A DNA stretch of 62,431 nucleotides, filler included, from Dimargaris cristalligena (lineage: Eukaryota): assembly GCA_003614675.1 (NCBI GenBank). It is 9 parts of 9 records of this genome, joined end to end, with 100 filler letters (N's around TTAATTAATTAA, not from the genome) between each part and the next. Parts side by side here need not be neighbours in the genome. Positions count along the whole stretch, not along the records: positions 27,917 to 34,771 come from ML003477.1; 8 more parts are not named here. One strand, 5' to 3'. The translations under genes and the position numbers were made by a program. Below, in pieces: positions 4,395 through 48,638 of the stretch. Below the pieces are notes generated by a model. The model was not told the origin of the DNA. It ran no database searches and saw only the letters and a list, made by a program, of their open reading frames with translations. The first letter of the stretch is position 1. The number at the start of each line of letters is the position of its first letter.

Positions 4395-4977
4395 TGTTGG
4401 TCCTCCTAATCTAACTTAATCTGGACCCAATGATTGCCTTCCTATATTAGACCTTATTATACTATATTAACCCTCCTATAGTCACCCCCGGTACTATGGG
4501 TTCCTCATTTATCACCTAACCCTTCTTCTTTCTGACTCCAGCCCTTCACACTAATCACTTAACAGGCTGATCCAAAGACTCTTCCAGTTCCTATAAGAGT
4601 CTTCCTGATACGAAGCCACCTGGATACCTATTTACCTATACCTTAGTTTAGTAACACCTTCCCTTGGGGGCCTCCCTTTGGAGTTATCCCCACATATATA
4701 TAACCAGGCCCCTTTGGGACTAGTTAGATTCCTCAGCTTATTATTACCCCCTAGTTTACCCAATAAACTCTATATATACTCACCTCCTGTGTACTGACCA
4801 GTAAGTGTGCCTACTACATATCCCTTACATCAATCCAGTCACCTAAACCTTTATTAGTTAGTACTATACCCCATACCTGACGCTAGTAGCCCACTTGGCT
4901 AAGTCTAAGCCCCGCCTACCATTAGAAGCCTATCCTCAGGACTCTTGATGGACTAAGAGTGGTTAACCTGGGTGATA
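4395..4977. mobile_element. Solo LTR family B (~580 bp)
   Basis: Homologous to four other copies. Ends TGTTGG...GGTGATA (decayed CA). Flanks TTATC/CTATT fit a CTATC TSD altered by C>T changes. Confidence 0.8.
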
Positions 4978-14292: not shown

Positions 14293-14502
14293 ATGAAGCT
14301 CCAGTCTGCCGCTGCCCTCACCCTTGTTTTCGTCCTGGCTACTGTCGCTCAGGTCCACTCTTCGGCCCCTGCCATGACCCACTCGCCCCAACTAGCCAAG
14401 CGTGGATTCCGCTCTGCTGCTGTAAAGGTGGGTGGTGCTTACCTCGGTTACAAAGCGGCCGGAGCTGGCATCAAGATGCTCCGAGAGAATAAGAAGAACT
14501 AG
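14293..14502 (+). CDS. 69-aa secreted prepro-peptide: signal peptide, pro region, Kex2 KR site, 32-aa cationic Gly/Ala-rich peptide
   Basis: MKLQSAAALTLVFVLATVAQVHS-SAPAMTHSPQLAKR|GFRSAAVKVGGAYLGYKAAGAGIKMLRENKKN*. ACCATG start context, TATATATAA at ~14133, pyrimidine-rich leader, C/T-ending codon bias. Confidence 0.85.
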   Translation: MKLQSAAALTLVFVLATVAQVHSSAPAMTHSPQLAKRGFRSAAVKVGGAYLGYKAAGAGIKMLRENKKN

Positions 14503-20857: not shown

Positions 20858-22683
20858 NNNNNNNNNNNNNNNNNNNNNNNNNNNNNNNNNNNNNNNNNNN
20901 NTTAATTAATTAANNNNNNNNNNNNNNNNNNNNNNNNNNNNNNNNNNNNNNNNNNNNCCTGGAGAAGCCACCCTGCCCTTTTGATATATTTTTGTTGTTC
21001 ATTTTAGTGGCCTGACACCACCACACTGTGACACCGTCGCCGGAGTTTGGACGATCCACGATGGCGGAGCTTTAACAGAACGGTCGAAGGTAAAATAATA
21101 TAAGATAACTAGTAAAAAGTGAAATCTTGACCTCCGGTTGAGGTCTTCGATTACTGCTGGGGTAAAACTGCTGGGTGAAGTTAAAAGTAGATATTTATTC
21201 TGAATAATAAAAACTTATCTCGGTGATAACTTGCCGTTTTAAGGGCCGACTTGGTGCTACATATTTATAGCAACGTGTAGATGTGAACATAAACTCATAC
21301 TAAAACTTTCGGACATCGTCCGCAGATGGACTAACCGCCATAAAACTGCGAAGGGAAAAACTGGCGGGGTCTTCGAGTTCAACGAATAGCGGAAAAGGAA
21401 GGAAAGAAAAATAACGGAAATTGGAAGACAAAAGATGTCTTCGGATCTTCCAACGTTCTCGTGTGAACAGTATATATATATATGTACGTGGAAGTGTTGA
21501 GTTCCACTCGTAGGTCTCGGAGTGCTCAATCCATGGAAGTGGAGTTATTCACTTTTACCGTCCAGGAAGCGGAAAGGAACTCGTTTTCGGACGAGGATTA
21601 ACCAACATAGGTCTTCCGAATACTCATGCAAGGGTGTAACTGTAGCATGCGCAAGGATCACATGACGAAGGTCGCGACTAGTTTGTCTTGTGGAGAGGAT
21701 AACCCATCCCAACCCATGTCAGTACATATGGCGCTATTCTATAGGCAATACATCTATTGTAGTATAAAGCTATTCAGAATAAACGTCAACCCGACAAGCT
21801 TAAGCAATGCCACAGTGCCTAATGATAAAGCAGCTTGCACGGCCATTGCTGTTAAAAAAATGACATTGTGTCCCATATGGCTGCCGATCCCCCCTAACCT
21901 ATGCGGTTCATTCTAGCCCATTCACAAAATAGCCAAGTGGGCGAACCACATTATTACTGTAGTTAATCTAGCCTCTAAAATCCCCAGAAGGCAAGTTTAA
22001 TTCGCACGACTTATTGGCGACCCTGCGAAGCAGTAGTTGTTTGGGAGCGCCGCCTTAATTTTTTTAATAGAGATCCGCCTACACCCGACCCCCATAGCCT
22101 CGGCTTTATATTTCCTATTTGGATCACCCCCCTATACCACTCAAATATATAAAAATATATTCCTGAAAACCCCAACGCAACTGACCAATAGGCTGCCCAT
22201 GTCACGCATCTAACACCGTCGCTATTGTGCTTCAGCACATCACAAGGAAAAGGAATCATTAATTTTATCCCAGAAACTAGGTGCATTAAGGATATGCGAG
22301 CCTTCTCCCCGCCCCTTCCATAAACCCTGAAGAAGTACATCAAACATAGTGGCAATTCCCAATCCAGAGAGCTCTACGTATAGAAGAGAAATACAAATAA
22401 ATAGATTTATATATTATAATAAATGGGGGAGATGGGGGGGGGGGATCAGGTGCACAGATTAGATACAGTCAATGTCCTAACGGGAAAGTGTAAGGCAAAG
22501 GTAGGCGCGGAATAGGGAAAACTAGGGACGAAGGTGTCAAATAGACAGGGTAGGCAGAAACGGAGTGGATTAAACGTATTGAGTTGCTAATCCGAGGTAT
22601 ATGGAAGAAACTCAAGCGGCAGGTTACAAAAAGAGGGAAAAAATAATATAGCCAAGGTGGTTTATATTATTAATGTTTTTTTT

Positions 22684-24304
22684 TTACGGTGGAGATTGAC
22701 CATTACCGCGCCCACGCCCCCGACCCCGACCACCCCTGCCTCGACCCGCCCAAGCTCCCGGGGGCACGTGTCCTCCCCCAGGGCCAGAAGGAGCGGTGTT
22801 TAAGAGAACACCCGCGGGATTGGCCATAGTGGCCGGTATGGCTCCCGCCATGGCGGCGGGCTGGGTGTACATTGAATGGTGGTAATATTGGGTTAAATTA
22901 GGGGGTACCGTATTGGCTGGGAATCCCCCAAGGCTGACCGGATTCACCAAGGCGGCGGGATTGATGAGACCCTGCCCTGCGTAGACGGGGTCCTGGTAGT
23001 CGTACATGGCATACTGAGCAACAGGGTTGGCACTGGGTGGGATGGGCATATAGGTAGGGGCAACAGCGGTGGTTGCCATCGTTGTGGCTGAATAATCGAC
23101 CGTCAGACTGGCGCCATTATTGGCGGGATTGATGGCCTGGGCTATATGGACAGACTGGGTTGCATTCACATGGGGTGGTGGAACTGTAATCGCATGGGCC
23201 GGGTTAGCGGAGGGATCAGCTGAAGCCGAGGCGGTTGCTGTAGTGGGCATTGGGGATGTACTGGCACCATTTTCGGTTTTTACCGGAGAAAGTTCGGCTG
23301 AAGCCGCAGTTTTATGCACCGACATTTCGTCTGGTAAATCGGGCACGGCGGCAACTACGTCTTTGAGGAAATCGAACTGTTCATTGGCATTGATGCAGCG
23401 TTTTCTGTAGGTAGGGAATATTATGCAAACATAGGGGAATCAAATATGGGTTAGTTGAATTGATTCGTACATGAAGAAGAAAACGTATAATAAACCATAG
23501 CGGGAGTGTTTGGTTCGATCACATAAAACGTACTAAAGAGGGTACACTTACAGATGGGCTGATGACATTCGTTTGGAGTTCCTGAAACGGGTTTCCTCGC
23601 ACGAGCGATCAATGAGCGACTGCATAAACATTTCAAGGGATTTGGCTAATTGCGAGGTAATGGAAAGTAGTTGAGTTAGATAGAAGAGTAGTTGGGGAGA
23701 TGCTGTTAGGTGATGTGGACTAAAGAACGCTATATGACATGCGAGACATTTAACTACGTGGTCAACTAAATTCCAAGGACCAGTTACAACAGGGGAGCTC
23801 TGGATAACCTACCCACTAAAACAGGTGTGGCCTGGGCCATTTTGCCAACATCTTCGTCCATCTGCATGATCTTCTTGATCCGGGCCTAGCAAAATGCATG
23901 GCATATATATATATATATATATATATAGGGGGCATATATTATAGTCGAAGTTGAAAACGTGACGCTGGGTCAACGACGATACTGGGGGCGAACATGTGGT
24001 AATAAATCGTACGGGATAGATAGCCCTCCTGATGCGATGGCATGGATAGCTATAATACCCGCCACCTTTTTGCATGATTAAATGACAACTAGGTCCGCTT
24101 CACGGTAGTATATAGTTTTTTGTAAAAGGACGGGGATAAACTGAAACCCGTGTAAGCCCTGATTGATGAACACTATACACCGCGTTAGTTTCAAACCCCA
24201 GGGGAATCTCAAATGAAATATTTTAGGGTTAGTGAGAAATGTAGCCAACGAGGCATTTCGAATAAACTTACCACCGGGAATTTGGTCTTATGCTTCTTCC
24301 GCAT
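22684..24304 (-). CDS. BUR6: NC2 alpha subunit (histone fold) with low-complexity C-terminus (exons 24304-24272, 23885-23813, 23645-23552, 23404-22684)
   Basis: Spliced product [47 protein letters not shown]...MSSAHLKRCINANEQFDFLKD matches the DRAP1/Bur6 signature; canonical splice sites. Confidence 0.93.
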
Positions 24305-25314
24305 GGTGGAGGTGGTGGTGGACGGGTGTAGGGAGGGGGAGGTCCAAATAAAGGAGCCGGTGGATATGGATGTATGTGGTCTAATGATCGTGAATTGGGG
24401 CTGTGGGAAGGCTGGCGGTTGAATGAGCGACTTCTAGGATAGAGGGGGCTGTGGTTGATTGTAAAACGAGGGACACGAACGCCGGCGGATTGGACTTTTG
24501 AATTAGGCGAGCGTTAAATGTAGTACTAGTCTTGATGGCGTACGGGCTTGAAGGTGCTGGGCTGGGCGGGCTAATTATATAAAAATAAGATGTGTCTTTA
24601 TATATAAGGACCAACTGAAGGGATTAAATACTACGTATGCCAAAGTGAGCAGCGGAGTCAGGGAACTAACGGCATAGACAATAGATAATAAATGAAGGAA
24701 AGGAAACAAGGGAAAGAGTAGAAATGTCACGAAAGCAGAGCTGGATGAGCTGAGCCAGTCACTTATATGAGCGCAGTGCATACGATACACGCAAGAGAGT
24801 GGCGGACACTTTGCTCTTTAAACCCTGACCTACCACCACTATAGAGACCAAAGAGTGTTGGGCTGGCTGTGAATAATGGAGAGTGGTGGTTACCAAGCTC
24901 TGAAACCAACCTAATATCAATCCAGCCCACATCCCCAAAATTTATTTCCCAAACGAGCCCTCTCGTGGATTTTGGGTGGTGCGATGTATATACTGTTTGG
25001 GAAATTATTCCGTATTCACATACACAATGGCGGGAAAAGTGGACAGCCGTCACTACAATTGGTGGACGTCGAGTCCCTTTAACTCTAGTAATAATATTCG
25101 CCTACCCCTCCCAATGCCACCCGCCTCCACTATAGATAGAATATGTATATTACCGTTTGACTGCTGTCTTCATTTTTTAAAAATAATCTTTTGCTCCATT
25201 AACCCCTTCCCCTAATTGCTCCTCTCGACTACACGGAGTCTTTTCCTTAAACACCACATCGCCTGCTGCCCCACACACGAAAACAGCGCCGCAGTTAACT
25301 AGGCATATTTCCGA

Positions 25315-27546
25315 ATGTCCTCCAGCGATGAGAACCAGACCCCACCCCGTCGGGCGCAGCCCAAACCCAAACGGCGGCCACGCCCCACCACCACTTCACG
25401 GTCCGCCACGATGGCCCTTGGCCCTTCGGGACCCGCACCCACCGATAATGGCACCACCACCCCCCTAGGCGCAGCTACCCCGCACTCCCGTGGCAACATC
25501 CCCCACGACGACTCATTTTTCCGACGAGACACCACCTCAACCCTGGCCCTCATCGCCCAGTCCATCGAGTCGCCCTTACCAGGCCCTTCAGCTGATCTCG
25601 ATACCCCCAGTAAACGCAAGTCCGACGACGCTCTGTCGTCGCCAAATTGCGGCCCCGTGGCTCGTAAACGAGTCGAAAGGCCAGCGCGGGACGAGCTATC
25701 CCTTTCCCCGCCCAGCAGTCCTAGCCGGGGTGCAGCTCCTCGCCGGACCGGTGTGGTGAGGGTGAGTGACGATGACGACGACCAGCGGAGTGTATCCCTA
25801 ACCCCGCCCCCGGATTATCTGGATGTGAACGACTCGGACCTAAACTGGCCTGGCCTTTCCAACCATAATCATAACCGCGACATTGACCACACCATTCTAC
25901 TAGTGTCGAGTCCGTCTCCCGGCTCCTCGCCGTCCTTAGCACCTCGCTATTCACCCGAGTCGAGCGTCCTGCGGGGGCTGGATCCCGAATTAGAGGCAAT
26001 TGCTACTCAAATGCGTAGCCAACTACCACCCCCATCGGCCATGCCATTGCAAGTGGGTCACGAAGGCGAGTTGACTGTCATTGACGACGACTTGGCTATT
26101 GTTCCCTCCCCCCGCTTGAGTGGCGGTAGCTTCCGCCGTACCGGTAGTAGCCACAATGCCCTCTTAGGGACGACTAGTCCCACCCTAGATTACCAGCACG
26201 GCCTACAAAGTCCCCCACCCCTTTCGTCGCTACCCCGGAAAATGTCCCGAGCCGATTCTACTCCCCTAATATCCACTTTTCACTGCAACCTTTCACCAGG
26301 GACCCCCCTCCAAATCACCATCATTCCCCGCATTAGTTTCCAACCGGTGCCCGATCCGGAACAGGAACCTGTCTATTTGCCCATTTATGTCCCCGTCTCC
26401 TACCGCGTCCAACGAATTGATTCGTTTGAAGGTATATTTACCGAATTTTGTACCCGCTACCACCTTCCGCGCTCCGAAGTAGTAATGACCTTTCGCGATA
26501 CCCCCCTGTTTGACCGGTCCTCACCGGCTAGTCTCGATTGGCAAGATGAAGTAGAAATATGTAAGTGAAGTGCAAATAGAGACGCTGTGCGGTTGGATTA
26601 GGGTGTGATGGAACTGTTCAAACGTTTACCCTTCTTGATTTGAATCGGCTAGCAGCCGGACTTATAATAGTACGGCGGTGCTTTAGTGCGAGCTGAAGCA
26701 TTCACCTTTGGTGGTATAAGTCACTTCTCGAAACACAACCACAATTAGCCAGGTCAATTAATAACCACATTTTCGTTTATTCACATCGGCTATTTTATTT
26801 TTTATGTTTTGACTTTTACATTATGCCAGTCTGCTACTTCCGACACACCTTCGAGGAAAACAAGCGCCGTCGCGAATACCAAAGCGAGAAACGTCAGCAC
26901 CGGCTGGAGGAACAGGCCCGGCTAGATGTACTGTATATCCAAAAAAAGAAACAGCGGGAAGAACTACAGATGGCTGCAGCCACTTCGCAGGCGGGGGTGG
27001 TAGAGTCTTCCGCCAATGTCGAACCTGACGAGGATGATGAAAACGAGGATTATGTCAAGATTAAACTACGCGGTAAAGACAGAGTTGACGTGAAGCTCAA
27101 GGCCAAACATGTAAGTATAGCAATTTGATTGAAGAGTACTGGCTCCGTCCTATGAACTGAGTACGGCTCAGAAATTTTACAAGAGAATCCCCACACTAAG
27201 CGGGTTGTATACGGATCAAAGGTTTATTCTATGAGCAGCATATTGTCAGCATTATCAAACCAATACTTACCGTACCGTGTCTCCTCCCCCCCTATATACA
27301 TTGTATACTTCCCACTTTGACCCATCATTTATTACGGGTACTTCAAATTTCGTTTCGGGATGCTGTTTCTTATTGTAGACGACAACCGTTAAAGCCCTAA
27401 TCGACCAATATGTCAAGAGGCAGGATATCAACTCCCGCATCAATACTGTCAAACTCGAGTTCGAAGGGGATATTTTAGACCCCGACATGACCGTCGAAGA
27501 ACTGGACCTCGAAGACGGTGATATGCTCACGGTTATCATCAAGTAG
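25315..27546 (+). CDS. Esc2/Rad60/NIP45-family protein with two C-terminal SUMO-like domains (exons 25315-26560, 26830-27110, 27379-27546)
   Basis: Disordered S/P-rich N-terminus; SLD1 (DSFEGIFTEFC...VVMTFRDTPLF...SPASL); SLD2 (VKIKLRGKD...TTVKALIDQY...LEFEGDILDPDMTVEELDLEDGDML). Transcribed divergently from BUR6. Confidence 0.85.
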
Positions 27547-29208
27547 CCCGACATGTCCAGTTTCCCGGCCTTTCACTGCTCTGGATGTAGATAACCTCCT
27601 TCCTTTTATAAACTTGACCTCTTTCTTTTCACCGGATGCATTCGATGCTTTGATGCGTCTTCATTTGAGAATTGGGGCGAGCTTAGTGTTACATATTCAG
27701 TTATGAGACGTATATGTTGGGCCGGTGATTTGAGGAACCCCTCTCCCGGGACTAAGGATGGGGCTGAGCCCCGCGCTATGCTCGGGATTGGATGGGCCAC
27801 CGGACGTCGGGTTTGGNNNNNNNNNNNNNNNNNNNNNNNNNNNNNNNNNNNNNNNNNNNNTTAATTAATTAANNNNNNNNNNNNNNNNNNNNNNNNNNNN
27901 NNNNNNNNNNNNNNNNGGCATTAGCAATGGCCAAATCAATAATCAGATACCTGTCTTTTATAATATCCTGGACTATTAAATGGCGTCGATAGGTCGGAGG
28001 GCTTACCAATGTTCGCAAGGTTACGTGGCCGTGGCACTCGCTATTGCCGCATTTGGACAGGCCGAGAACGGCAAACTAGCCTGACCGTGTCGCAGTTGGC
28101 GCAACTCAATTTCCAAAAAATGAGTTGATCCATATGCCCAAACATAAAAGGCATGGGCATCCCGGCCACATCGGGTGCACCGATGCTATTCATTTAAGAG
28201 GTACAATTGGGTCAACCAAATTCAGCTGTTTAGTATCTACAAGTGCTTCCCTTTCTACCTATTGAAATCTATGAAGCAGTTCCACACGTTCGCAGCGTAT
28301 GAGTTATTCTATAAGGCGCCAGATTGCAGGCCTTGTCGCTAAGTAGTTTCAGCAAAGCGTTAGAGATACTGTCCCATATAGTAACCAATAGTTGTTGGAT
28401 GGAAACCCCGGGTGGTAGGAACGTTTGGTAGAATTGGTTAGAGAAGGTTGGTGGCTAAAATTTATTTTAACATTCAGTGTATGCCACATTACATTTAACA
28501 TAAAAAATCACATAACAATCAATCCAAACTATATATTCTAACTTTGAGGGAGACCAACCCGCACTTTAGTTGGGCGAAGATGGATACTTGATGAATTCGG
28601 CTCTTAGGATCGTGCGAAAATCGAATAAAAAGGCGACCCTACAGTATTTATTAGGTTGTAGGAAGAAGGGGTAAGAAATGTAATCGCCAGGACAAAGTAG
28701 ATAAAACCAATCATTAGAGAGAAAAGAGAGCGAGTGGAGAACATCTGTCACAGAGCGGTAATTGGAGAATAATAATCAGACAGTCGAAACTGTAAAGTTG
28801 GAGGGGTGTGTAAGAAATAATGTTTGGATTGATACTGACGTCGCGCCAATGGAGTCCCATCCCGTGGAATTACAGAGGTAGCTGCACAGTAAATGCATTG
28901 ACAAACTCCAGAAAAGGTCAGAATATAATATATGGCTAGGAAAGTATCGGGAAATTTAAAGCCACAAATCATTTTAGAACATAACATAATCCAAAATCCA
29001 CGATATAGTTAAAGGGATTTGAGCAGTCGGAATAGTTTAGTGTCAATAGGACAGTACACTTTCCCTAAGCGAACATCAACAATAAAATGAAAATATCGGG
29101 ACATACGCTAACACATGCACCGGTGCACGCAGAATAAAAGGGATGCAGTTGTATCTTCAATACAGTAAGATAAGGTAGCCGAGATATGGCTTGGAATACC
29201 CAATATCT

Positions 29209-29412
29209 CTATCGAGATCGGGGCAAAGGGTTGGATTTAAATCTGATGAGCAAGAAGCTCAGCTTAAAGTCAGGCGCGCGCTTTCCCAACCAATGATCGA
29301 ATCGAACAGGGAGATGCGAGTTGAGCGACCCATTCGTTGGCATGGAGTGTGATAATGGGGAGGCTAAAAGTGCGATAAAAGCCGCCAAAATAGTGAATCG
29401 TAAGGCGTGCAT
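29209..29412 (-). CDS. 67-aa secreted prepro-peptide: signal peptide, pro region, KR site, 22-aa cationic/hydrophobic peptide
   Basis: MHALRFTILAAFIALLASPLSHS-MPTNGSLNSHLPVRFDHWLGKR|APDFKLSFLLIRFKSNPLPRSR*. TATATAA near 29550. A paralogue lies 3.4 kb away. Confidence 0.75.
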   Translation of the reverse strand: MHALRFTILAAFIALLASPLSHSMPTNGSLNSHLPVRFDHWLGKRAPDFKLSFLLIRFKSNPLPRSR

Positions 29413-31890
29413 GCCTGCAATGAAAGCGAAATGTGTAATGGAGAAAGGTGTAAAATTGTGGCGTCGATTTAGTGGCTATAGAAATAATAGAAATGATAGA
29501 TGGAGAGAGAGTGGGAGAGAGGTACGAAGGGAAATAAAGCTGAATTATATAACAGCACAAAAATGACTGAAGTGAAGGCGGGGGCGGTCTATTTTTGAAA
29601 GAGGTATCATAGTTCTATTTAGTCAAATCCCTCCCAACTTATGTATTCGACCAATCAATTGTGGATTTGCCAATTGGTTATCAAAGATTACCCGCTTATT
29701 ACTTCTGTTGAAGAATAGCGGTAATCGGGATTTCAGCCCTGGTGTCGACCTGCTCTATTCGGAGGCCACATCCTTTTTTTACCGAAAGTTCCCATACTGG
29801 CATTAGGGCTATGAGGTGCCAAAAAAATCCGGAAATGCAACGGTAGTCGTAGTGTAACCATTAGGAGAGATTGGCCCCATTAGTGATGTCGAGGTCACCT
29901 GATTCTCCCTACTCTAAAGCAACGTCTAAAAGGCGAAGAACGGTCACCGGCCCCATTAAAACATAACGGATTAGCCTAAGGTATAAATTAGATAATGATC
30001 TGCGCCACCCGGCAAACCTTGTCTTAATAAAATACTTATATCTATACATCTAGTCATTATCCCCCTCGAACCCCGACTCGGCTGATGTGTTGGATCCTAG
30101 CCTAACTCGGCCTAATTGTAACAGTAGGCATGTATTGTCTTAAAGTACGGAAAGTAATGCTGCCGAATGGGGTTGCCGGGATTCCTTGGTCACTATCAAA
30201 ACTATTCCCACAACCGAGTCCGCTATTAGTACAACTGGGTCATATATTACCCCTTTTCTATTGCTTATCTGTCAAAAGCTACCTCGATATCGATGGTAAT
30301 CAATGTTAATACGGGCGTTAGTACTGTCAACTAATCGTCGGCCCTGCCCTTTCAGACTGCTTCAAAACGCAGGGAGGGGTCATGCTTGTTGGCTTAGATG
30401 GCTAATCCCTCTACGGTTCCTGGAAGTGACCAGCGTCACCGAACAATTATGTTCCGAGTGCCTAGTATACGAATTCTCCTCCCTCCTAATTTATGTTTAG
30501 TCCATCTCCCGTTGGCATTATTATTAGTAGTTCAAATTTCAGTCTAAAGGTGATGATTAGTCATATCGAATAGCCATTTGATTGAGATATTTTATTTACA
30601 ATTCTAGCTGGGAGTAGTATTTAAATAAACTACAATTCTCCCAAGGTATAATGCTGAGACAGACTTACCATTACCCCACCAGTAAAAATTGAAGAACCAC
30701 AAAAGGAGAAGCGCGCCCTCCGCAGTAATACTTATTAGATATAAGTTTATGCCAATATATAGAATTAGAAGCATTTTTAACAGAGCTTTCCTGGAAATGG
30801 TCCTCAGGAGGAAGACCGTTTCAATAACGGTTTCTCGTGCGGGTATTCATTGAGTTGTATATCAAAAGCGAAATTGCCACCAATACCTTCAGTAAACATA
30901 ATTCACCGGTTGATACAGGCACCCTTAGTAAACCCATCAATAAGAGCAAGGTCGCGAGCCTCGCAGAAAAGGCAAAGGTAACGGTAATTTATAGCTCGGC
31001 AGCGGTTCCAGGTTGCTCTACTACCAGGGAGAATGCAATTGGGGTTTTCCCCGGATACCCCGTAAATTACCTGATGATGGAAAAACTGGTAAGTCAATGT
31101 TCCACCTTGATTAGCAACCATACAACGGAGCCTTGTAAGACACTGGAGTGGTTAGCCGTTGCAACACTATTCAAGTTCGCTCGATTCTTAAAGGTTGTGG
31201 GAAGAACTATACAGTCGTATAATGGGAGCTTGCCCTATAAAGTTGACCTATTCGATTGCTTATTAGCTAAATATATATAGGAGGCATTTTGTCTCGTCTT
31301 TATTTGCCGTTTATGATAACGAGATGCTAATTACCCCCTATTTTAACTATTTCCTAAAACACAATTTTTTTATATAATACTATTGGCTACCTCAAGGTGC
31401 CCTTAGGCTTAATGGCTTAGTGTATACGTGTTTCGTTGGCTGTGATATTCCCCACTACATCATTTGGACATGTCTATTGAAGTAAACTAGCATATCAGTC
31501 TTACACTTTGTACAGCTCAATGCCCAGGAAATGAACTGGCTGATATGTCCACATATAAACAACATGGGAACCCTAGCTACACCAAATGCTTCTGTATTAT
31601 TCATTCATGAGGCATAGTTCAGCCAATCAGACCCACCTAGTTGGTATAATACATATTACATGCAGGCTGAAAAAAATATACTAATACTCCATAAAGTAGA
31701 ATATTCTATGGGTGAATATATACCCAACTTAAAAGGTAGATGGAGATGGGGAATGTTCAAGCCAAGCCCTTTATACTATGTTTCAGTAGATTAATAACAA
31801 TTGTATTTCAGCATTTATTGGCTAAATGGAAGGAGTGGTAATAAATGGGATTGCCAGTGTAAAATGAAACAAACTAGCCATCAAAGGGAG

Positions 31891-32474
31891 TGTTTCCTGG
31901 GTTAACCACTCTTAGTCTATTAAGAGTCCTGAGGATAGGCTTCTAATGGTAGGTGGGGCTTAGGCTCAGCTAAGTGGGCTGCTAGCATCAGGTACAGGCA
32001 TAGTACTAACTAATAAAGGTTTCAGTGCAGGTATAGGCAAGGGTCATGGAGCAGGCACACTTACTAGTCAGTATAAGGGGAGTGAGTATATATAGGGTTT
32101 ATTAGGGGTAAACCAGGAGGTAAGAATAAGCTAAGGAATCTAACCAGTCCCAATGGGGCCCAGTTATATATACATAGGGACAACTCCAGAGGGAGGCCCA
32201 GGGGGAAGGATACTACTAAGAATAAGGTATGGTATAATAGGCTAACCAGATAGTCATGAGGACCTGGAAGACTCTACTGGTAACTGGAAGAGTCTTTAGA
32301 TTAGTACTTGAGTGATTAGTGTAAAGAGGCAGAGTCCAGAAGGGGAAGGGTTATATAATATAGGGTGATCCCATAGCACTGGGGGTGACCATAGGAAGGT
32401 TAATATGGTGCTATAAGGCCTAATAGGGATAGATACTATAGTGTCTGGATTAAGGAGGATTAGATAGTCTAACA
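31891..32474. mobile_element. Solo LTR family B
   Basis: TGTTTCCTGGGTTAACC...TAGTCTAACA; inverted relative to 4395-4977; CpG-depleted. Confidence 0.8.
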
Positions 32475-32633
32475 GGGTTCACGGAGTTGGGATATTGTAG
32501 TCTATAAGAAAGGACAATTTCACTTAGCAAACAATAATAACCAAGAAAATATCAATAAAGTGCCAGAAAGGTGTAATGTAAAGATGATTAGGTAATCATA
32601 ATGTTGCTATAGAGATTGGAACTAACTGATGTA

Positions 32634-32810
32634 TTAAAATTTAAATAGCGGGAGAGGCCCATGCTTAGTATCCATGTGTTTGTTCAACTGATCATAGATT
32701 CAAACAGGGAAAGCTAAGCTGAGTGACTTATTAGTAGGCATAGTGTATGCTGAAGGAGTGTCTATGAGTGTGACAACAGCTGCCAAAATAGTCAGCTGCA
32801 AGATGTTCAT
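32634..32810 (-). pseudogene. Pseudogenised paralogue of the 29209-29412 prepro-peptide gene
   Basis: MNILQLTILAAVVTLIDTPSAYTMPTNKSLSLAFPV*: CGA>TGA at 32702-32700 and KR (AAGCGC) > KH (AAACAC). Upstream ~32935-33120 aligns with ~29545-29730. Confidence 0.8.
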
Positions 32811-34684
32811 GGCTGTCGTGGGGGCAAAGTGTTCAACAGGACAAGTTGTGGAAATGGGAGATGTCAACTTGATGATGATAGGGACAGAGGTGATATACAG
32901 ATAGAGAAATGTGCTAGGGGGATTAGGGTTCATTTATAAATAAGTGTGAAAGTGACTGTAGTGAGGGGGGAAAAGTTGATATTTGTAAGAAATACCATAC
33001 CTCCATTAAGTTAAGTCCCCTCTGAATTATCTATTGAGCTGACCAACAGGTGATTTACCTATTGGCTATCAAAGATTGGCCTTTTTCATGTGGTTTTTGA
33101 AGGATGGCGGGAATTATGATTTCTACTCTTAAGCCTATGTGTTTCTTCCATATATTTTACCTATTGTCTTTTAACTACTAAAGTGGTGCTCGATCCAAGC
33201 TTATGACAGTGTCATGGATATTTCTTAATTACTTGTCAGGCAACAGCTGGCTCAAATCTACGATCATAGGAAGGAAATTGTATTCAGTTGTATTTAGATC
33301 TGCAGCAGTATCTACTTGTCCAATCAGGAAACCTAGTTTACCGGCCAAAAATTTACCCGAATGATGGAGACGACCAATGCTATAAAGCTATTCAATGTGG
33401 CAAAGTGATCATCAACCCTGTCCCTTCACATCACCGTCAAATACATGAAAGGATAGAGGATAATGGAACCGCTGGTTAATCCTTCAACAGTTCCCTTAAG
33501 AGGTCAGCACGGCTGAATAACACTGCTCCCAGTGCCAAGTATACTTACTCTCCTTACATTATCCCTTTTTGTGTTGATCTCCCAATGCCACTACTATTAT
33601 CATAACCGTGTTTCAGTCCAAAAATATGGTAGTTAGTTTTACCATCCGACTGTGCCATCATGACAAGCTCTTGGCTTTTTACATAGCAAGGTGTTCCCTG
33701 TTTGGTCAGAGTGGGATTATTGTGGTGATTTGCCACTCTATTACTGAATCACAGAGCTCACATGAGTAAGCTCTCTAGTTTAACAGCCAGATATGGTCAA
33801 CTATGAGTCCAAATATTCACCTGACCCCACCAGCAAGAATGCGCCACAAAGCTGGCAACAAACTATTATTAACCTAGTCGGACACAAACAAGTCCCAGGA
33901 CATCTAATATAACAGAACATACGTCATCACTGGTTTGGTATGGTATTATAAAATACTACTACGGATATCTAAACTATATCCCCATTGGGTAACTATGGTA
34001 ATAATGCTCCCTCTTGACCTTGACGTACCCCTGGAAATTTATCTCCAAGTGCTGTTTCAACGGGGCATTATGGATACAGAGCCAGGGGTCTATCAATTTA
34101 AGCGTGTCTAAGGGTGGAGTACCAGCTGGAGTGTATATATATGGAGGTTTTTAAATAAATAACATTAGCGAAGGAAGTATTGGAGTTTGGCCCGGGTGGC
34201 TGTTTGTACATAGTAGTGTCACCAGAGAGCCTTCCAAGAATACTAATGAATGCACTAGAAGGTGTCCGCTGGTGCTTGAAAGGCTATGGTGGGAACCCAC
34301 AACTTCTTCACATCAGCTATGGTGGTGGGGTGGACTAGTCCTTTTAGTTTCGGTCAGGGTTAGGTAAGTGATCATCTTAACACGGAGTGTTTCCATGGGA
34401 AGAGCGCTATGTTATATCAGGGCCACATTTGGGAAGCAACAGATACAAGGACCTGCTAATAATTGCACTTAGTAACCTACCATGCAATTGCGAAAGTGGT
34501 GAATGAAGTGGCGGCTGGGTGATTTTAATACCAAATTGTAAAAGTAAGTGTGCCAATTGACTATCCCTATATGGCTACATTCTCTTCAAAGTAATAGTAT
34601 CGCATACGTACTAATACATAGTAACCCACAAAGCGCGTGTATTTGCCCTGCCATCTGCTGACGGCAATTATTACCTCCAGTCGA

Positions 34685-39241: not shown

Positions 39242-39823
39242 TGTCACCTGGGTTTACCACTCTTAGTCCATTAAGAGTCCTGGGGATAGGCTTCTAACAA
39301 TAAGCAGGGCTTAGACTCAGCCAAGCGGGCTACTAGCATTAGGTATGGGTACAATGCTAACTAATAAAGGATAAGTACAGGTATATGCAAGGGATATGCA
39401 GTGGCATACTTACTAGTTAGACTGAAGGGAGAGTAAGCATATATAGAGTTTATTGGGGGTAAACAAAGGGGCAGAATAAGCTAAGGCCATCTAACTGGTC
39501 CCAATGGGGCCCAGTTATATATACACAGGGGACAACTCTAGAGGGAGGTCCCTGGGGGAAGGTACTACTAAGACTAAGGTATACTAAATAAGCCAACTGG
39601 ACAGTTATGGGGGTCCAGAAGACTTGGGTGGTAACTAGAAGAATCATCAGATCAGCACCAGAGTGAGTGGTATAAACCTAAGAGTCTGGAAGGGGGACAG
39701 TTATGTTGAATAGGGTGAGCCTATAGTGCCGGGGGTGACCATGGGAAGTTATATAGGGTGCTATATAGCCTAGTTGAGACAGATGATCACTATACCCAGA
39801 TTGTAAGATTAGAAAGGCCAACA
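39242..39823. mobile_element. Solo LTR family B
   Basis: TGTCACCTGGG...GGCCAACA; homologous to 31891-32474. Confidence 0.8.
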
Positions 39824-40656: not shown

Positions 40657-41310
40657 AATATATGCAAGGGATGTGCAGCAGGCACACTTACTAGTCAGTA
40701 CAAGGGAGGTGAGCTTATATAGAGTTTATTGAGATAAACTAAGGGGTAAGAATAAGCTTAGGACTCTAACCAGTCCCAATGGGCCCAGTTATATATATAT
40801 AGGGATAACTCCCAAGGGAGGTCCTAAGGGAAGGATACTACTAAGACTATATAATAAGTAAATAGGCCAACTGGATAGCTGCTGGTATTTGGAAGACTCT
40901 AATAGTAATTGGAAGAGTCTAATAGATAAATAATTAAGTAATTAGTATGAATAAGTGGAGTCCAGAAGGGGAAGGGTTATATAATATAGGATAATCCCAT
41001 AGTACTGGGGGTAACCATGGGAAGGTTAATGTGTTGGTGTAACCACAGATTCTCTCAATGATAATCCAAGATAGACTAAAGATGAAGTTTATTTTAAGAG
41101 ATAGAAGTAGGAAAGAACCACAAGATGAGAATTAAGCTCATTGCAGTGGTATTTATTGAGTGTAGTTTCAACTAATAGGATCACTCAAAATACCTGGTAC
41201 AGTAAATGGTACTTGGGGGGAGATGTAGTCCAACATAATGTGGTACTATAAGGCCTAATAGGGACGGACATCTAAGCTGGCTAGATTAAGGTGGATTAGA
41301 TAGTCTGACA
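40657..41310. mobile_element. Truncated LTR family B copy interrupted by a nested element
   Basis: Family B homology at 40657-41031 resumes at 41236-41310 and ends GTCTGACA. Confidence 0.8.
41032..41235 (-). mobile_element. 204-bp element family C (short solo LTR) with a perfect 5-bp TSD
   Basis: TGTTGG...CCAACA ends flanked by TAATG at 41027-41031 and 41236-41240. Minus-strand ATAAATA and AATAAA. Related copy at ~55770-55930. Confidence 0.85.
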
Positions 41311-41711: not shown

Positions 41712-42119
41712 NNNNNNNNNNNNNNNNNNNNNNNNNNNNNNNNNNNNNNNNNNNNTTAATTAATTAANNNNNNNNNNNNNNNNNNNNNNNNNNNNNNNNN
41801 NNNNNNNNNNNGATATAAAAATAGAATGTGATTGAAAAAGGGAATACTATGATTGACTAAGTAGTCTCAGGTCCTACCACAATATGTGTGTTATGATGTT
41901 GGGTAATGTAAATAGTAATAAAATAAAAATATAATAGAAATAATACCCTCGGGTACTCGAAAATAACTAAAACAAAATCAAACTTCCGCAGAAGTGCTAT
42001 CTGGTGAATTCTTCAGCCTCGACTAAAAAGTTGTGTTTATTGATAAGATATTCCACCAAGTATTTATACTAAAACTCGGGGATTATAAATTGGTAGACGT
42101 TTTTAAAGACTAAAGGACT

Positions 42120-42540
42120 AAACTCAGGCTAAATAGTTTTGTTTGTATAACCAAAACAAAAGGAAAGACAAGGGTCTTTGAATTATATCATTGGTTAAAT
42201 ATGGTAAACTATTTATTAGTATTACCAAAACAATAGTGAAAAAGGGAGACTTCGAAATAATAATTGGATGAATAAAAAAGGTTATACTCATTGGTATAAC
42301 CAAAACAACAGCATCAAAAAGATACTCAAACTAATAATTGGCTAGGGCTAAAGTTATACCCGTTGGTATAACAAAAACAAAGGTATAAAAGATATAAACA
42401 AACTTATAATAGGTTAAAGGGATAGCTGATACTTGTTGATAGAGTACAGCAAGGGTATAAATGTAGTACTCAGAAAAATAATCCAAGTAGAAATAAATGT
42501 ATAATCATTGTATAACCATAACAACTATAAAAAGGGAAAA
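42120..42540 (+). repeat. Degenerate tandem repeat, ~6 units of ~72 bp
   Basis: Core (TTG)GTATAACCAAAACAA recurs near 42148, 42221, 42297, 42368, ~42440 and 42512. Confidence 0.6.
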
Positions 42541-43777
42541 CTTAGGCTAGCAGCGCCAATTCTTTGACTAATCACCTAAATATGGATAGTAATTTCAATT
42601 AAAAGAGTAAAAATAAATAGGACAATGCCAAATACTACTATAACCATTTGGCTATATCACAACAAAAAAATTAATTAACTGTACTATAAAATGACTAATA
42701 ATATTACTGCTTATTCTTGGAGCCAGTTAGTACCTATTTACGACATTAGTAGGATAAAGTATGGTTATAATCTATAATATTTTATTACCTATTGACTTGA
42801 AAGTATTGTGCAATGGCAGAAGAATGGTTAGAATAAGAGTTTAAACAGTAATAATCATCTGGTAAAAATCGGTAAAAGAATCAGTTATCTCAAGGGCTAG
42901 AAATAAGGTGTCAAAGTCTGGTTTATTAAAGATGGGTAATTACCCCTTATTTATGTCAGGAAATAAATTAAGGGGTTAGGGTATTCAGTGGCAGTGGAAA
43001 GCAGTAGTTGGTCTTGAAACCATTATTGGGATAACCACTGGTAGTCCTGGGTCACTTGATGTGGTTAGCTGGGAATGTTGGGGACATTGGTGGTGTTACT
43101 AGTTTTGATTGAGTTCTGAATGAGTTTGTTCTAATAAACTCAGTGGCTTAGCTACTGGGGAGGTCATGGGAATATTTGGTACTTGCGGGTTGGGGATTCT
43201 TGCAGGATGACTGGGGAAATCACCGGACCAGTCCTGAGGACATCCTGGTGACCTGGGCCTGGGAATTAGTGCTGCTGAAGTTTGTGGTTATTGGGGAGGC
43301 GGTACAACAAAAGGCTTCCTATTACTACCTAGCATCTTCCACTAGCTGGGATTTCTATTCATAGATGAGACCAGTAGTGTCCCCTATTGTATGGATAGAT
43401 ACCCACATGAGCTATCCCTAATATATCTTAACTTGTATCTGTCATTTATTTGGATATTTGTTTATATACCCATCCCTTTGCCATACCCAGTACTGATGTG
43501 CAGCCATCACTATATTCAATGATCACCCCTTACTACTAATACATACCAGCTGGTGACCATTCTTAGGCCAGTACACTTCTTATCTAATTGACCATGGTGT
43601 GGCACATACATTGTGAACTACTATAGCTGTCCCAGTGGGCATGGTATATAGAATAAAAATAGTCTATATTTATTTTCAGGTGGGAAAACAGTCCCAGATA
43701 AATGGTACTCTTGAGTGGCGATAGGTAAATTAAATGCAAGGGATAGTAGTGGTCAATACTAAAGCCATCTATCAACA

Positions 43778-43919
43778 TATGGGTGAAATTCGGCCCAGCT
43801 GTATAATGGTTTAAATAATATGTATATGGGAAAATATATGGGATATCTATTCTTAACCAGTAATTTTTACTTCATCTAACGGATTTTTTGTTGTACAGTT
43901 TGGTTGAATCTCTCCCATA
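43778..43919 (+). mobile_element. MITE family D (~142 bp)
   Basis: Imperfect ~18-bp TIR TATGGGTGAAATTCGGCC / GGTTGAATCTCTCCCATA with TA at both ends. Confidence 0.8.
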
Positions 43920-44477
43920 TGGAATTGGATGGGAAAGGTGATCAGCTGTAAGGGTGGAATGATTAAAAGACCCCAGTGATGTATTGATTATAATCAACTG
44001 GCATGTCAATAAATATCCCACAAAGATTTTATTTCATGTAGGTTATGAAATGCTGGAAACCCGAATCACAAAATTGACGTGAAAAAATAATCACCAGTAC
44101 TTTGACGATTATTCCCGTATAGGAATTATATAATCTTTATTCGGTATTATAAGTTGCAGGGAAGTCACCAGTCTCTGCCACTGCTATTAATGGCATCACC
44201 AAAGTAGTGTTGCTTTGTGTGTAGACTATCTTATTGGTTTAGGTTTGTAAATACGGGGTGAAGTCGGCCTAGTTGGAATGACACATAATTCTCGAACTAG
44301 GTTTTCAATTCGACCTCCTCACCCAACACACATCATACACCAGTACCCCAGGTTTAACTTGTTTAATAGCTCATATGACTGTTAAGGAAATCTCACATCT
44401 ATACAATTAGTGCATACAAGCCACGTGAGGGGGTTTGTGTACCAGATTTCACACAATAGTATACAAGTGCGTGTTGA

Positions 44478-44619
44478 TATGGGTGAAATTCAGCTCGGCT
44501 GTATAAGGTTTTAATAGATATGTGTATGGGAAAATCGGTGGGATGTTAATTTTCAACCAGTAGTATTTGCCTCATCAAATGGATTTTTCGTTATATAGCC
44601 TTGTTGAACTACTCCCATA
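44478..44619 (+). mobile_element. MITE family D (~142 bp)
   Basis: TATGGGTGAAATTCAGC...GTTGAACTACTCCCATA; same length as 43778-43919. Confidence 0.8.
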
Positions 44620-45592
44620 TATAAGATTCAAAACCATCTGCGATCGTTTCCCCTACACTGTTTCCATTGATCGCCATCAGATATAGTATTTTAGTTGGGG
44701 TGGTAACGTGGGGCAATATTCGTTATAAAGATAATAGGGCATGTGAATCAACACAAACCATGATGGATACTGGTGATCATCAATAATATACCAGACTGTA
44801 GAATATAGCCACGCACAGCCTATGTTTAAGGAAGCAATGATAACTAGTTCGATTAATGGCATACGCCCGGTTCTTCGTGAGAACCGAGAAAAGTTCTATT
44901 GAATAATTTCCTGCTCTTGATAAAATACAAAGAGACATTGGTACACCACAGACCAAATTGTTCAATTTATCACATATTTTTATGGGTTATGGGTTGTAGC
45001 TACGGTTACTTGAGCAAGTTGTGGGCAATGGCACGTCGATCATTGGCAAACTAGATTATAGTGTTAATTTTATGTGTCCTTTGTAACCCGGTAAACTTTA
45101 TCCCCAGTAGGCACGGCTAATCCCAAGCATTGTTATGTCACGACTAATAGTTGAATAATGTGAATTTATTTTAAACAAAACTTTGTAGTGGTTGAATTGC
45201 ACTGCTTCTGTATACCCCAAACAACTATTAGATATACTCCAAATTATATAAATGTGTTATAGCATGACACTGATAAATTATAATAAAACATTACAAATGT
45301 CCATGTAACTGATGGTTTGGGACGAAAAATAATAATAAGTGTGTTTAGGTAGGTACTTTCTAGATTGTTTGACTGACCAATTTTATTGCTGGCTTACAGA
45401 ACTATATATATTAGGTTGGATACCGCCATTATGGCTATTTTCCAAATAAGTAGCCCGTATTCAACATTGTCGCTCACAATATATTTTTACTTACTTTTAC
45501 TGAACTTCCTACCTAGCCCCTTACAACAGTCTATATTTCACTCCACATCCTCGCCCAGCCTCTAATTGGATCCCAGTGACTCCGAATAAATC

Positions 45593-45973
45593 ATGTGGGC
45601 TTTAAGCTTCTCTGGTTCGATGGTTGAATTGAAAGTTGGGGGTAAGTAGGCACTCACATTGTAGGTTTACCTAAAGCACCCTGACTTTGCTCGGATTGTC
45701 GAAACTTTGCTGTCCCTTATTTTACCTACTCGCTGTGGCATTAGGGTGAATTATTTTTTTACATTGCATTCATAACCCAGTCTTTGCCAATATGTAACTA
45801 CACTTACCTTCCATATAGATGGCATCATGTTTGCCCTTCGCAAAACCTCCGCGGCAATACACTTGGCCAAAATAGTCTCCGTCGACGAAGAAAATAAAAC
45901 GGTGACATTATCTGACATTAATGGTAAAAAATGGACCTATGCGCCTACTGAAATCATGGTTATCACCAACTAA
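45593..45973 (+). CDS. Small two-exon protein (67 aa, or 58 aa from the second ATG), SH3/KOW-like beta-barrel candidate (exons 45593-45641, 45819-45973)
   Basis: G|GTAAGT donor and TAG acceptor join in frame: MWALSFSGSMVELKVGDGIMFALRKTSAAIHLAKIVSVDEENKTVTLSDINGKKWTYAPTEIMVITN*. CpGs are retained; TATATATA at ~45404. Confidence 0.65.
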
Positions 45974-46597
45974 CTAGATAAACTCTAATTGACATTGGCG
46001 TTTGGTCGAATATCCTCACATGACCATTAATTGGTACAATTTCCCTACTGGACATGGCATACACCACTTCCTCCTCCATTTAGCATTAGCTTCTCGGCCT
46101 CCATATGATACTAATAAACAGTCGGTTTGTGATTCTTAATATTGGATGTATGGGTGCTATTGGTACCCTTTTAAGAGACTCGGTCAAACAAAAAATTAGA
46201 CAGTTCTTCTGCTGGTAATGCCATAGCCCTTAGGAAATAGTTAATATCTACATATTCTATTGCATGGTATAATATTATATTAGTGAAGCCATTGGCAGCC
46301 CAGCTACTGGATTGAATTTGAATACTAAGAGTAGAGTGGCCAGGGATTCAAGGATTGCAGAACGGATGCAAAGATGCCTTACTGGTTGTTGGACCTTCTA
46401 ATCCCCCACTTTACTCTAAGATATTTTACAATAGCCTTATACCTTTCTATGGCATTATAAATTATCTGACCATAAAATAGTACCTTACCACCACCTTAGA
46501 ATTGATTTAATCTGTATATTTCTGAAGTTTAGGACCTATTACCCCTGCTTCAAATCTTGATTTCCATGTGTTATTTTTAAGAATAAACTATCTGTCC

Positions 46598-47181
46598 ACA
46601 TGGACCTTCTAATCTACCCTAATCCAGCTGGCTTAGTATCTGACCATATTAGGCCTTATAGTGTCATATTAACCTTCCCACAGGTACCCCTAATACTATG
46701 GGATTATCCTATATTATATAACCCCTCCCCTTCTAGACCCCCCCTCTTTACACTAATGACTCAAGTGCTAATCCAAAGGTTCTTCCAGTTACCAGTAGAG
46801 TCTTCCAGATACTTGTAACCATCCAGTTAGCTTATTTACCTATCCTATAGTCTTAGTAATATCTTTCCCTTGGGACCTCCCTCTGGAGTCATCCCCATAT
46901 ATATATAACTGGGCCCCCTTAGGACCAGTTAGATTCCTTAGCTTATTTCTTACCCCCCTAGTTTACTCTAATAAATACTATAGATGCTTACCCCCTCATA
47001 CTAACCCATAAGTGTGCCTGCTGTACATCCCTTGTATAACTGATCACCTAAGCCTTTATTGATTAGTACCATACCTGTACCTGATGCTAGTAGCCCACTT
47101 AGCCAGGTCTAAGCCCCGCCTACTACCAGAAGCCTATCCCTGGGACTCTTGATGGACAAAGAGTGGTAAACCCAGGCAACA
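46598..47181. mobile_element. Solo LTR family B
   Basis: Same orientation as 4395-4977; ends CCCAGGCAACA; left end decayed. Confidence 0.8.
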
Positions 47182-47411
47182 GTACTACAGTTAATTTAGA
47201 AAACTTCTGAAAAAGGTATATAATATCCTTGTTTATATTTAATAATGAATAATATTTGACTAGCTGCAAGGTGACAGTAGTCCCCATTTACATAGTGCTG
47301 TATATTCTTTACATTGGATGTAAAAATTATAGGCTACCAAGAGTGCAGAATCATTTTTGGGGGGAAGAGGATATAAACTGCAATAATGTTACTTATCATT
47401 AGTGTGCCAGA

Positions 47412-48113
47412 TGTATATAATAAGATCTGGCCCAAGGCAGACCTTATACCCAAAAGAGCTATTTAAGATTCTCAATTTGAGATTCTTAATTTAGACTATT
47501 GCCTGGAAGGTAGTGTAGTGAGGTGCCAAATTAGATGGAACTGGAGGAAAGGCTAATTAGTACCTGAAGCCAAGGTAATAAAAAGGGACTTTTTGCCAAG
47601 TACAAGGAATAGGAGAACAGAGAGTAAACTGAGTAGTAGCTAATAGTCACCTGAAGCCAAGGTGGTATTAGTATTCTACAAGGGGATCAAAGGGGTCAAA
47701 TAACAATGTTTAGGAAGTAAGGGGCTAAAGTTGTCTGTCCTTTCAAGGGGCAGACAAAGGGTTTATTTATAGTTTTTTATCTGAGGGGAAATATAGGGAG
47801 AATCAGAGAGGAATGATAGATTAGTTATCAACATAAGAACTTATGCATGTGATAGAACTATAAACTAATCAGACTAGACTTGGCACATGGAAAGGCTTAG
47901 CATAAAATGGGGGACCAATTGATAGGATGGTGGGCTGGTAGTTATGTGAAACATAGCCAGTGGCATGTAAAAACCAATCAGGGAGCTGGTGGCATGTGGT
48001 TCTGTAAAACATGGCTAATGAAATGGAAATGGAGAGAAAAATGGAGAAAGAAAATGTAATGTGGTGTAGGCACCACAGTTGTAAGCTCCCTATCACTGCT
48101 TGTACCCAGTACA
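47412..48113 (-). mobile_element. Candidate decayed LTR (single copy in window)
   Basis: On the minus strand: purine run AGGGGAGG, then TGTACTGGGTACA...TATACA, then TCTGG. Internal TATAAATA and short duplications; CpG-free. Confidence 0.35.
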
Positions 48114-48504
48114 CCTCCCCTATGTACTAAGCCTTCTCCCCTTCTTTAGTACTTTATCAGCTAATATATACATCAGCTATACCATCCCTATCTAGCCCCT
48201 AGTTATAGCTACTATACAATCTTCAAAAAGCATGAAATAGGGTATTCCATATAATAGTGCTAACTAATAGTGTGTTTCAGTCATGCCAGAGTACATATTA
48301 GATGCTAGAAGCAGGCACAGTAGTATAAACATCTGCCTTAGTACAGTTTATACTAGTACCATTTACTGTAAGCTAAATGGTTATTTTTATTACCTGGCCC
48401 CCTATATTTTAATTATTGTTATTAATAATAAAAATTCACCCAAATGGCCTTTGTCTGGCTATATATTAAGGCTTTCTACAATAGCTGTCACCCAAATTAA
48501 CCAC

Positions 48505-48638
48505 TGTGGTGAACTTACCACATTTTTTACCTACTTTTATTTTTAATCCATTTTTCACACTTATCGGAAGTATGCCCCTGACAAGTGAATGAGCCCCTGC
48601 CCCTGACGAGTATGGTCATTTTTCCTCCATTTTCATTA
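48505..48638 (+). mobile_element. LTR family A 5' end at contig end
   Basis: Near-identical to the reverse complement of ~340-475. Confidence 0.8.

Follow-up and report, generated by a model that had tools for sequence, protein, structure and literature searches.

The window analyzed here, 62,431 bases from the genome of Dimargaris cristalligena (assembly GCA_003614675.1), consists of nine contigs of about 6.9 kb each with N spacers between them. The fifth contig (27917-34771) contains a short open reading frame (ORF), designated ORF1-A, whose product is laid out as a small secreted precursor: a signal-like start, a pro-like stretch ending in a dibasic KR site and a short basic C-terminal peptide. 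Dimargaris is a mycoparasitic fungus of the Kickxellomycotina. The reading preferred here, with a probability of roughly 40%, is that ORF1-A is a real orphan prepropeptide gene, lineage-restricted and unannotated, of a Dimargaris-type mycoparasite, while a chance ORF is nearly as likely. A second copy belongs to the other half of an old tandem duplication of the whole segment, and its disabling changes are the result of mutational decay at CpG sites, not of diversifying selection.

Translation of 29412-29209 gave exactly the 67 amino acids (aa), with the signal-pro-KR-peptide layout, that the original prediction had quoted. Among the window's 155 ATG-initiated ORFs of at least 45 aa, ORF1-A had the top score for the hydrophobic (h) region of its N-terminus (3.04), signal-likeness being judged by a crude rule of our own (hydrophobicity and the -3/-1 positions) and not by SignalP. 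Small residues were present at -3 and -1 before M24, with an alternative possible cleavage after A17. The dibasic site reads L-G-K-R, with Leu at P4 of K44-R45, which passages of PMC8528282 describe as the preferred kexin context. The 22 residues following K44-R45 had a charge of +4, as claimed for the mature peptide, and the position of the sequon in the pro-like stretch was kept in both copies (NGS in A and NKS in B). Judging by these features, ORF1-A may be transcribed and translated and its product secreted, cleaved and active as a peptide: a cleavable N-terminal signal would bring it into the endoplasmic reticulum, the pro-stretch could be glycosylated at its one N-glycosylation sequon, a kexin-type protease would cut after L-G-K-R in the late Golgi, and the basic 22-residue C-terminal peptide would be set free and perhaps trimmed later at its basic C-terminus. 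The gene would lie in the intact unit of the duplication, whose period is near 3.4 kb.

Composition, alignment and counts of similar ORFs argue for a gene. ORF1-A had a GC content of 0.49-0.50 against 0.37-0.40 in its flanks, forming one of the contig's three GC peaks (98th percentile of the 204-nt windows in the contig), and held 14 CpG at an observed/expected ratio (o/e) of 1.21; long ORFs elsewhere in the window reached a GC of 0.51-0.58. In the alignment with copy B, all 201 ORF columns were free of gaps, while the 119 columns before the ATG included 13 gaps and the 3' flank a gap of about 58-60 nt. Upstream, TATA-like and CCAAT-like boxes occupied matching positions in both copies, and the CT-rich stretch preceding the ATG was likewise found in both. 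In locally shuffled 62-kb windows, ORFs combining a signal-like start (h of at least 3.0) with KR or RR were found in 10% of cases, and those with an aliphatic P4 ([LIVAP]xKR) in 4%. The real window held two ORFs with a signal-like start and L.KR against 0.08 expected, and none of 150 shuffles reached two, this last criterion having been set post hoc, after the data were seen. The language-model look-alikes of ORF1-A included several animal neuropeptide precursors, all with scores below the 0.9 mark and to be taken as a lead only.

The annotation of the genome has little bearing on the question. A 672-aa translation from the third contig had 99% identity to the NCBI entry "armadillo-type protein, partial" of Dimargaris cristalligena and 60-61% to Dimargaris verticillata and Dispira simplex proteins. 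The genome paper describes single-cell co-assemblies in its main text (PMC6784888), where a term search for "transcriptome" and "RNA-seq" gave 0 occurrences; missing annotation of a small gene therefore says little against ORF1-A. Term searches in the text of PMC9866270 and PMC6784888 turned up nothing about small secreted peptides in Dimargaris.

The fifth contig is made up approximately of two units of one old tandem duplication, as follows from four colinear same-strand blocks (Table 1) which, at sensitive settings, had 60-67% identity between the contig halves; with default scoring, two sub-blocks of block 3 matched at E 1.1e-7. CpG sites accounted for only 31 of 283 differences, which argues that the duplication itself is old. 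The original prediction had reported a paralogue 3.4 kb away sharing with ORF1-A the signal, the pro region and about 180 bp of promoter. The second copy does exist and its homology is real, but it is not a separately duplicated gene, since the duplication takes in the whole contig, with the colinear blocks spanning 27956-30548 and 31370-33622. Along the transcription direction of ORF1-A, identity between the two copies was 67% in the CCAAT-containing block (peak 76%), 65% in the next 70 nt, 62% in the TATA region, 58% in the part resembling a 5' untranslated region (13 gap columns), 69% in ORF codons 1-36, 52% in codons 37-67 and 65% downstream (29089-29010). The divergence, said to begin after the cleavage site, set in at codon 37, with KR lying eight codons further on; it was strongest in a stretch of about 45 nt, where identity fell to 30-40%, and in the last third of the ORF identity had recovered to 60-66%. 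An old pair of long terminal repeats or a transposon was rejected as the source of the likeness, which was colinear over the whole unit and not confined to two terminal repeats, with no retroelement or transposase domain in any frame.

Copy B of the ORF is clearly a dead tandem copy, as the original prediction had it. ORF1-A and ORF1-B could be aligned over 36 ungapped codons, in which 17 of 36 aa and 74 of 108 nt were identical; at codon 37 copy A has CGA and copy B the stop TGA, followed by two more stops in the ORF1 frame, three in total. The cleavage site AAG CGC (KR) of copy A corresponds to AAA CAC (KH) in copy B, and both the CGA-to-TGA and the KR-to-KH change are CpG transitions. None of the 14 CpGs of ORF1-A was kept in B, 11 having become TG, CA or TA, and the equivalent stretch of B held a single CpG. 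Over 707 aligned columns, one of the 27 CpGs of A was kept and 17 appeared as TG, CA or TA in B. Most of the low-identity patch, a run of CpGs in copy A, is of the same type. CpG o/e was 0-0.23 over 31317-33316, with zero CpG in 31517-32316, while the gene-bearing contigs had 0.75-0.91 and unit A was similar, with about 1. The CpG boundary was sharp and coincided with the junction of the duplication units (about 0.7-1.1 in 27917-31300 against 0-0.23 in unit B). Per contig, CpG o/e ranged from 0.32 (41812-48638) to 0.91 (20958-27816), the repeat-bearing contigs being the lowest.

A dispersed repeat about 575 bp long, common to contig 5 and contigs 1, 6 and 7, also breaks up unit B; its CpG o/e was 0-0.19 in the four copies measured. 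One strand of the repeat is purine-rich, and no protein domain, tRNA or Rfam match was found in the copy scanned. Presumably, unit B lies in a domain that surrounds the inserted repeat and is silenced by cytosine methylation, and C-to-T decay at CpGs would there have introduced the stop codon and abolished the KR site; the literature search found no paper on cytosine methylation in Dimargaris. Whatever ORF1-A proves to be, the state of the duplicate is explained by segmental duplication and CpG decay beside a repeat insertion, and CpG o/e, which separates repeat-associated DNA from the rest of this genome, can be used as an annotation cue.

These results change what can be said of the proposed family. 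Within the 62 kb there are two copies only, both from one segmental duplication, and no relatives of ORF1-A were found in the protein libraries. The loss of KR among paralogues had been named beforehand as an outcome speaking against such a family, and the site reads KR in A and KH in B. A conserved leader followed by a variable mature peptide was not supported either, the leader having 69% identity against 62-67% in the flanking non-coding blocks. The supposedly diversifying mature part lies behind the stop in the CpG-depleted copy, where 11 of 14 CpGs appear as TG, CA or TA, so that mutational decay explains its variability. Of the birth-and-death scenario, the dead tandem copy stands; its death came by CpG decay of a segmental duplicate, and a toxin/effector pattern is not supported. 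The proposal of two such families in 62 kb holds insofar as another ORF with this layout, unrelated to ORF1-A, is present at 14293-14502(+); the large peptide arsenal hinted at in the original prediction is conjectural. This ORF is probably the "first family" of the original prediction. Its 69 codons specify a clean signal-like start, then a brief pro-stretch, L-A-K-R and a C-terminal peptide of 32 residues rich in Gly, Ala and Lys. Its frame is open for 83 further codons upstream of the ATG and may belong to a longer product; the exact sequence of the 14293-14499 product was absent from the protein collection.

The strongest competitor of the gene reading is that ORF1-A is no gene but a chance frame in the pyrimidine-rich strand of old duplicated non-coding DNA, that its prepropeptide look is coincidental and that the copies owe their likeness solely to the duplication of the whole 3.4-kb segment, an explanation which we rank closely behind the gene. 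A number of results favor it and weigh against a gene. The leader was conserved no better than its flanks, its identity being about that of the neighboring non-coding blocks, and its substitution pattern was not coding-like, with A/B differences at codon positions 1/2/3 of 14/8/12. Purifying selection on the leader was not apparent in column shuffles, where amino acid identity at least as high as observed had P 0.46, the BLOSUM score P 0.10 and the absence of a stop P 0.10, although this comparison, made with a dead copy as one partner, is weak evidence. The KR site is present in one copy only. Codon usage did not favor the ORF1-A frame (7.0 bits against 13.8 bits in another frame), but this score was uninformative; the training set was flawed, a truncated frame having brought 30 in-frame stops into it. 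ORFs of at least 67 aa were common locally: the stretch 28.5-34 kb held six, including one that runs antisense to ORF1-A over the same DNA. An amphipathic antimicrobial helix, considered for the 22-mer, was dropped: its maximal 11-residue helical moment of 0.47 was equalled or exceeded by 72% of shuffles (P 0.72).

The searches for relatives point in the same direction. No word-sharing candidate was found among 5.8 billion clusters (36-118 aa), and 1.84 billion representatives of all lengths gave 0 hits at E of at most 0.001, which likewise speaks against an annotated longer protein that includes the ORF1-A exon. The exact sequence was absent from the protein collection, as were those of ORF1-B (from two starts) and of a second ORF pair of the contig, ORF2-A and ORF2-B; Pfam-A gave 0 families for ORF1-A even at E of at most 1; and contig 5 showed no recognizable gene, none of its 57 stop-to-stop segments of at least 45 aa matching Pfam at E of at most 0.01. 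In metagenome contigs, a pattern built from the alignment of the two leaders gave 102 matches, with 0 confirmed by tblastn. The chance rate of 0.04-0.12 per 62 kb would translate into tens of such ORFs in a genome of tens of Mb.

Against a chance frame, however, speak the coincidence of the GC and CpG island with ORF1-A, the alignment that is gap-free over the ORF only, the TATA- and CCAAT-like boxes common to both copies and the two LxKR prepropeptide-like ORFs in the window where 0.08 were expected. In addition, if the ancestor already had the frame, the survival of an unselected frame of 67 codons through about 40% divergence would be unlikely.

A further alternative is a spliced gene. The first 35-36 codons (signal and short stretch) would then form exon 1, for example with the donor CCT/GTTCGA (29307; GTTTGA in B) and, as acceptor, the TAG of the ORF stop (29209), giving a 99-nt intron and an exon 2 whose open frame spans 47 codons in A (29208-29068) and 28 in B; KR and the 22-mer would fall within the intron, and the TGA would do no harm to copy B. 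Similarity indeed fell exactly after codon 36 and was back about 100 nt further on, at a shared ...ATAG; GTNNG follows codon 35 in both copies, with branch-point-like CTGAC and TACTAAG inside; the frame is open after the AG in both, and B has a gap whose length, about 60 nt, is roughly a multiple of three; and genes of this organism have several introns and small exons. Yet four introns of one annotated gene measured 185-548 nt, and the three of them with a clear end finished in CAG, not TAG. The supposed intron of A equals exon 1 in GC (0.49), while the supposed exon 2 is flank-like, with its residues barely conserved (about 4 of 19 by eye). There is no indel between the copies, so a shared frame is automatic, and no library protein contains exon 1. 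Altogether a spliced gene appears quite improbable. A multi-exon gene joining ORF1 to ORF2, or to the conserved 28660-28710 piece, was also considered and rejected by eye: a stop directly precedes the ORF2 ATG in both copies, the acceptors that ORF2 could offer stand at non-homologous phases, and no AG occurs in the open segment 28654-28710.

Least probable of all is that the GC-rich blocks (the ORF2 region, the ORF1 region and 30329-30548) are non-coding RNA, a regulatory module or mobile-element remnants with ORF1 incidental to them, since, despite the coincidence of three unit A GC peaks with three of the four conserved blocks, the dispersed repeats inside the contig and at its end and a coding signal that is better in ORF2 than in ORF1, no Rfam family at gathering score and no tRNA were found in the contig, no transposon protein domain occurred in any frame and the unit is present only twice in the window. 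The Rfam search (E of at most 1) and tRNA scan of the contig gave only a sub-threshold snoU6-53-like match at 33717-33770 (22.3 bits against a gathering score of 36, E 0.23).

ORF2-A coincides with the contig's highest GC peak (0.549 at 27983-28186) and has an intact counterpart, ORF2-B, in unit B. The two have the same start, with a stop directly upstream in both, share an S-C-x-x-C motif and are identical at 24 of 48 aa, with differences by codon position of 12/16/24 and a joint column-shuffle P of 0.0003, found post hoc. No Pfam family or homologue of ORF2 was found, and a search of ORF2-A against longer proteins gave no candidate. One apparent metagenome relative of the ORF2 pair (L001, 1 of 73 pattern matches) was spurious, matching only query residues 11-20, which are the pattern itself. 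The contig's second GC peak (0.505) is block 4, in which the plus-strand frames are open in A (ORFs of 65 and 49 aa) and contain stops in B.

Elsewhere in the window, the end of contig 5 (34680-34771) matched contig 7 at 44473-44564 and 43777-43862 (89% and 77%), and this further dispersed repeat, lying at a contig end, is the likely reason why the assembly broke there. Two short ORFs of 32 and 30 aa, at 356-454(+) and 48527-48619(-), were 81% identical and rich in Arg and Gly, with a C-x-x-x-H-x-x-x-x-C-like stretch; they are possibly what is left of the Gag zinc knuckle of a retroelement. A long frame at 9454-11175(-) contained a 7-transmembrane region (7tm_3, E 3.4e-5, below the gathering score) and a C-terminal RGS domain (E 2.5e-9), and we take it to be a receptor-RGS fusion of the type known in fungi and plants.

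Table 1. Coordinates of the features discussed, counted along the whole window
Feature	Coordinates	Strand	Remarks
Unit A of tandem duplication	27956..30548		four blocks, normal CpG o/e of about 0.7-1.1
Unit B of tandem duplication	31370..33622		CpG-depleted, broken by dispersed repeat
Block 1	27956-28236 with 31370-31647		same strand
Block 2	28642-28722 with 31809-31889		same strand
Block 3	29157-29734 with 32552-33123		same strand; E 1.9e-43, lenient scoring
Block 4	30329-30548 with 33403-33622		same strand
ORF1-A	29209..29412	-	67 codons and TAG; ORF call and translation
ORF1-A, signal-like residues 1-23	29412-29344	-	hydrophobicity rule
ORF1-A, pro-like residues 24-45		-	carries N-G-S sequon (29334-29326) and K44-R45 (29283-29278)
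ORF1-A, putative released 22-mer, residues 46-67	29277-29212	-	
Upstream region common to both copies	29413..29734	-	alignment with copy B; putative promoter
CCAAT-containing block	29664-29689	-	upstream of ORF1-A
TATA-like TATATAA	29545-29551	-	about 139 nt before the ORF1-A ATG
ORF1-B remnant	32700..32810	-	ATG at 32810, 36 codons, TGA at 32702-32700
Dispersed repeat, about 575 bp, inside unit B	31891-32464		79-82% identity to other copies, no CpG
Other copies of the dispersed repeat	46608-47181, 4445-4968, 39247-39784, 40659-41042		on three other contigs
ORF2-A	28041..28193	-	50 codons, about 1 kb downstream of ORF1-A
ORF2-B	31455..31604	-	49 codons, intact counterpart in unit B

The decay of unit B has a general parallel, since repeat-associated CpG decay and silencing of duplicated DNA occur in fungi. 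Unit B and the measured repeat copies were alike in this respect, with a CpG o/e of 0-0.2. In contrast to processes of the repeat-induced point mutation type, in which both copies are hit, only one of the duplicate units was affected here.

Among secreted fungal precursors, ORF1-A is comparable first to the KEX2-processed repeat proteins (KEPs), with which it shares the dibasic KR and would share the small secreted precursor and the signal peptide, the latter predicted by the crude hydrophobicity rule. According to passages of PMC6339444, the 9-24-aa size class, into which the ORF1-A 22-mer falls, is the most abundant among KEP peptides, and KEPs have been reported in early-diverging fungi, including some Zoopagomycota. 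The same source defines them by internal repeats between KEX2 sites, its pipeline requiring at least four fragments, whereas ORF1-A has a single KR (residues 44-45), no RR, no internal repeat and no protein similarity found. With the defining repeats and the multiple KEX2 sites absent, ORF1-A is not a KEP. The effectors with a Kex2-processed pro-domain (K2PP), such as SnTox3, ToxA and SIX1/4/6 (passages of PMC8528282), have the same order of signal, pro-stretch, KR with aliphatic P4 (L-x-K-R) and secreted part, and they, too, are produced by a biotrophic or parasitic fungus. However, the K2PP motif (KR/RR or LxxR) was searched for in the first half of the protein and the products released are folded proteins (PMC8528282), while in ORF1-A the site is at residue 45 of 67, in the second half, and only 22 cysteine-free residues follow it, not a folded protein. 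Furthermore, the host of the ORF1-A producer would be another fungus, and its processing is predicted.

In layout, ORF1-A also resembled animal neuropeptide and peptide-hormone precursors (pigment-dispersing hormone, DH31, neuropeptide F and GnRH among others), whose common grammar is a signal, a spacer, a dibasic site and one short peptide within 65-105 aa. The scores of 0.78-0.86 were below 0.9 and the recognition value of 1927 was below 2300. The resemblance is one of layout only: there is nothing to align, the precursors belong to no common family and the kingdoms differ.

A wider proposal, which we regard as unlikely, would be that an early-diverging mycoparasite of the Dimargaritales makes orphan single-peptide prepropeptides (signal, glycosylated pro-piece, LxKR and a short basic peptide), of which ORF1-A and 14293-14502 would be two examples. 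If true, precursors built like animal neuropeptides or host-defence peptides would have been missed by annotation, and the genome as a whole would hold dozens to hundreds of them; at the haustorial interface, their peptides would serve as signals or target the Mucorales host, and the tandem twin would represent gene death through repeat-triggered CpG decay. For ORF1-A itself the consequences are narrower. If it is real, gene sets built for single-cell assemblies without transcriptomes miss such genes, and a role of the peptides as effectors or signals, in the parasitism of one fungus on another, could be put to the test. ORF1-A would then be a kexin-processed single-peptide precursor, a new sequence-orphan member of that general kind, and a first hint that zygomycete-grade mycoparasites use such peptides, a class studied almost only in Dikarya.

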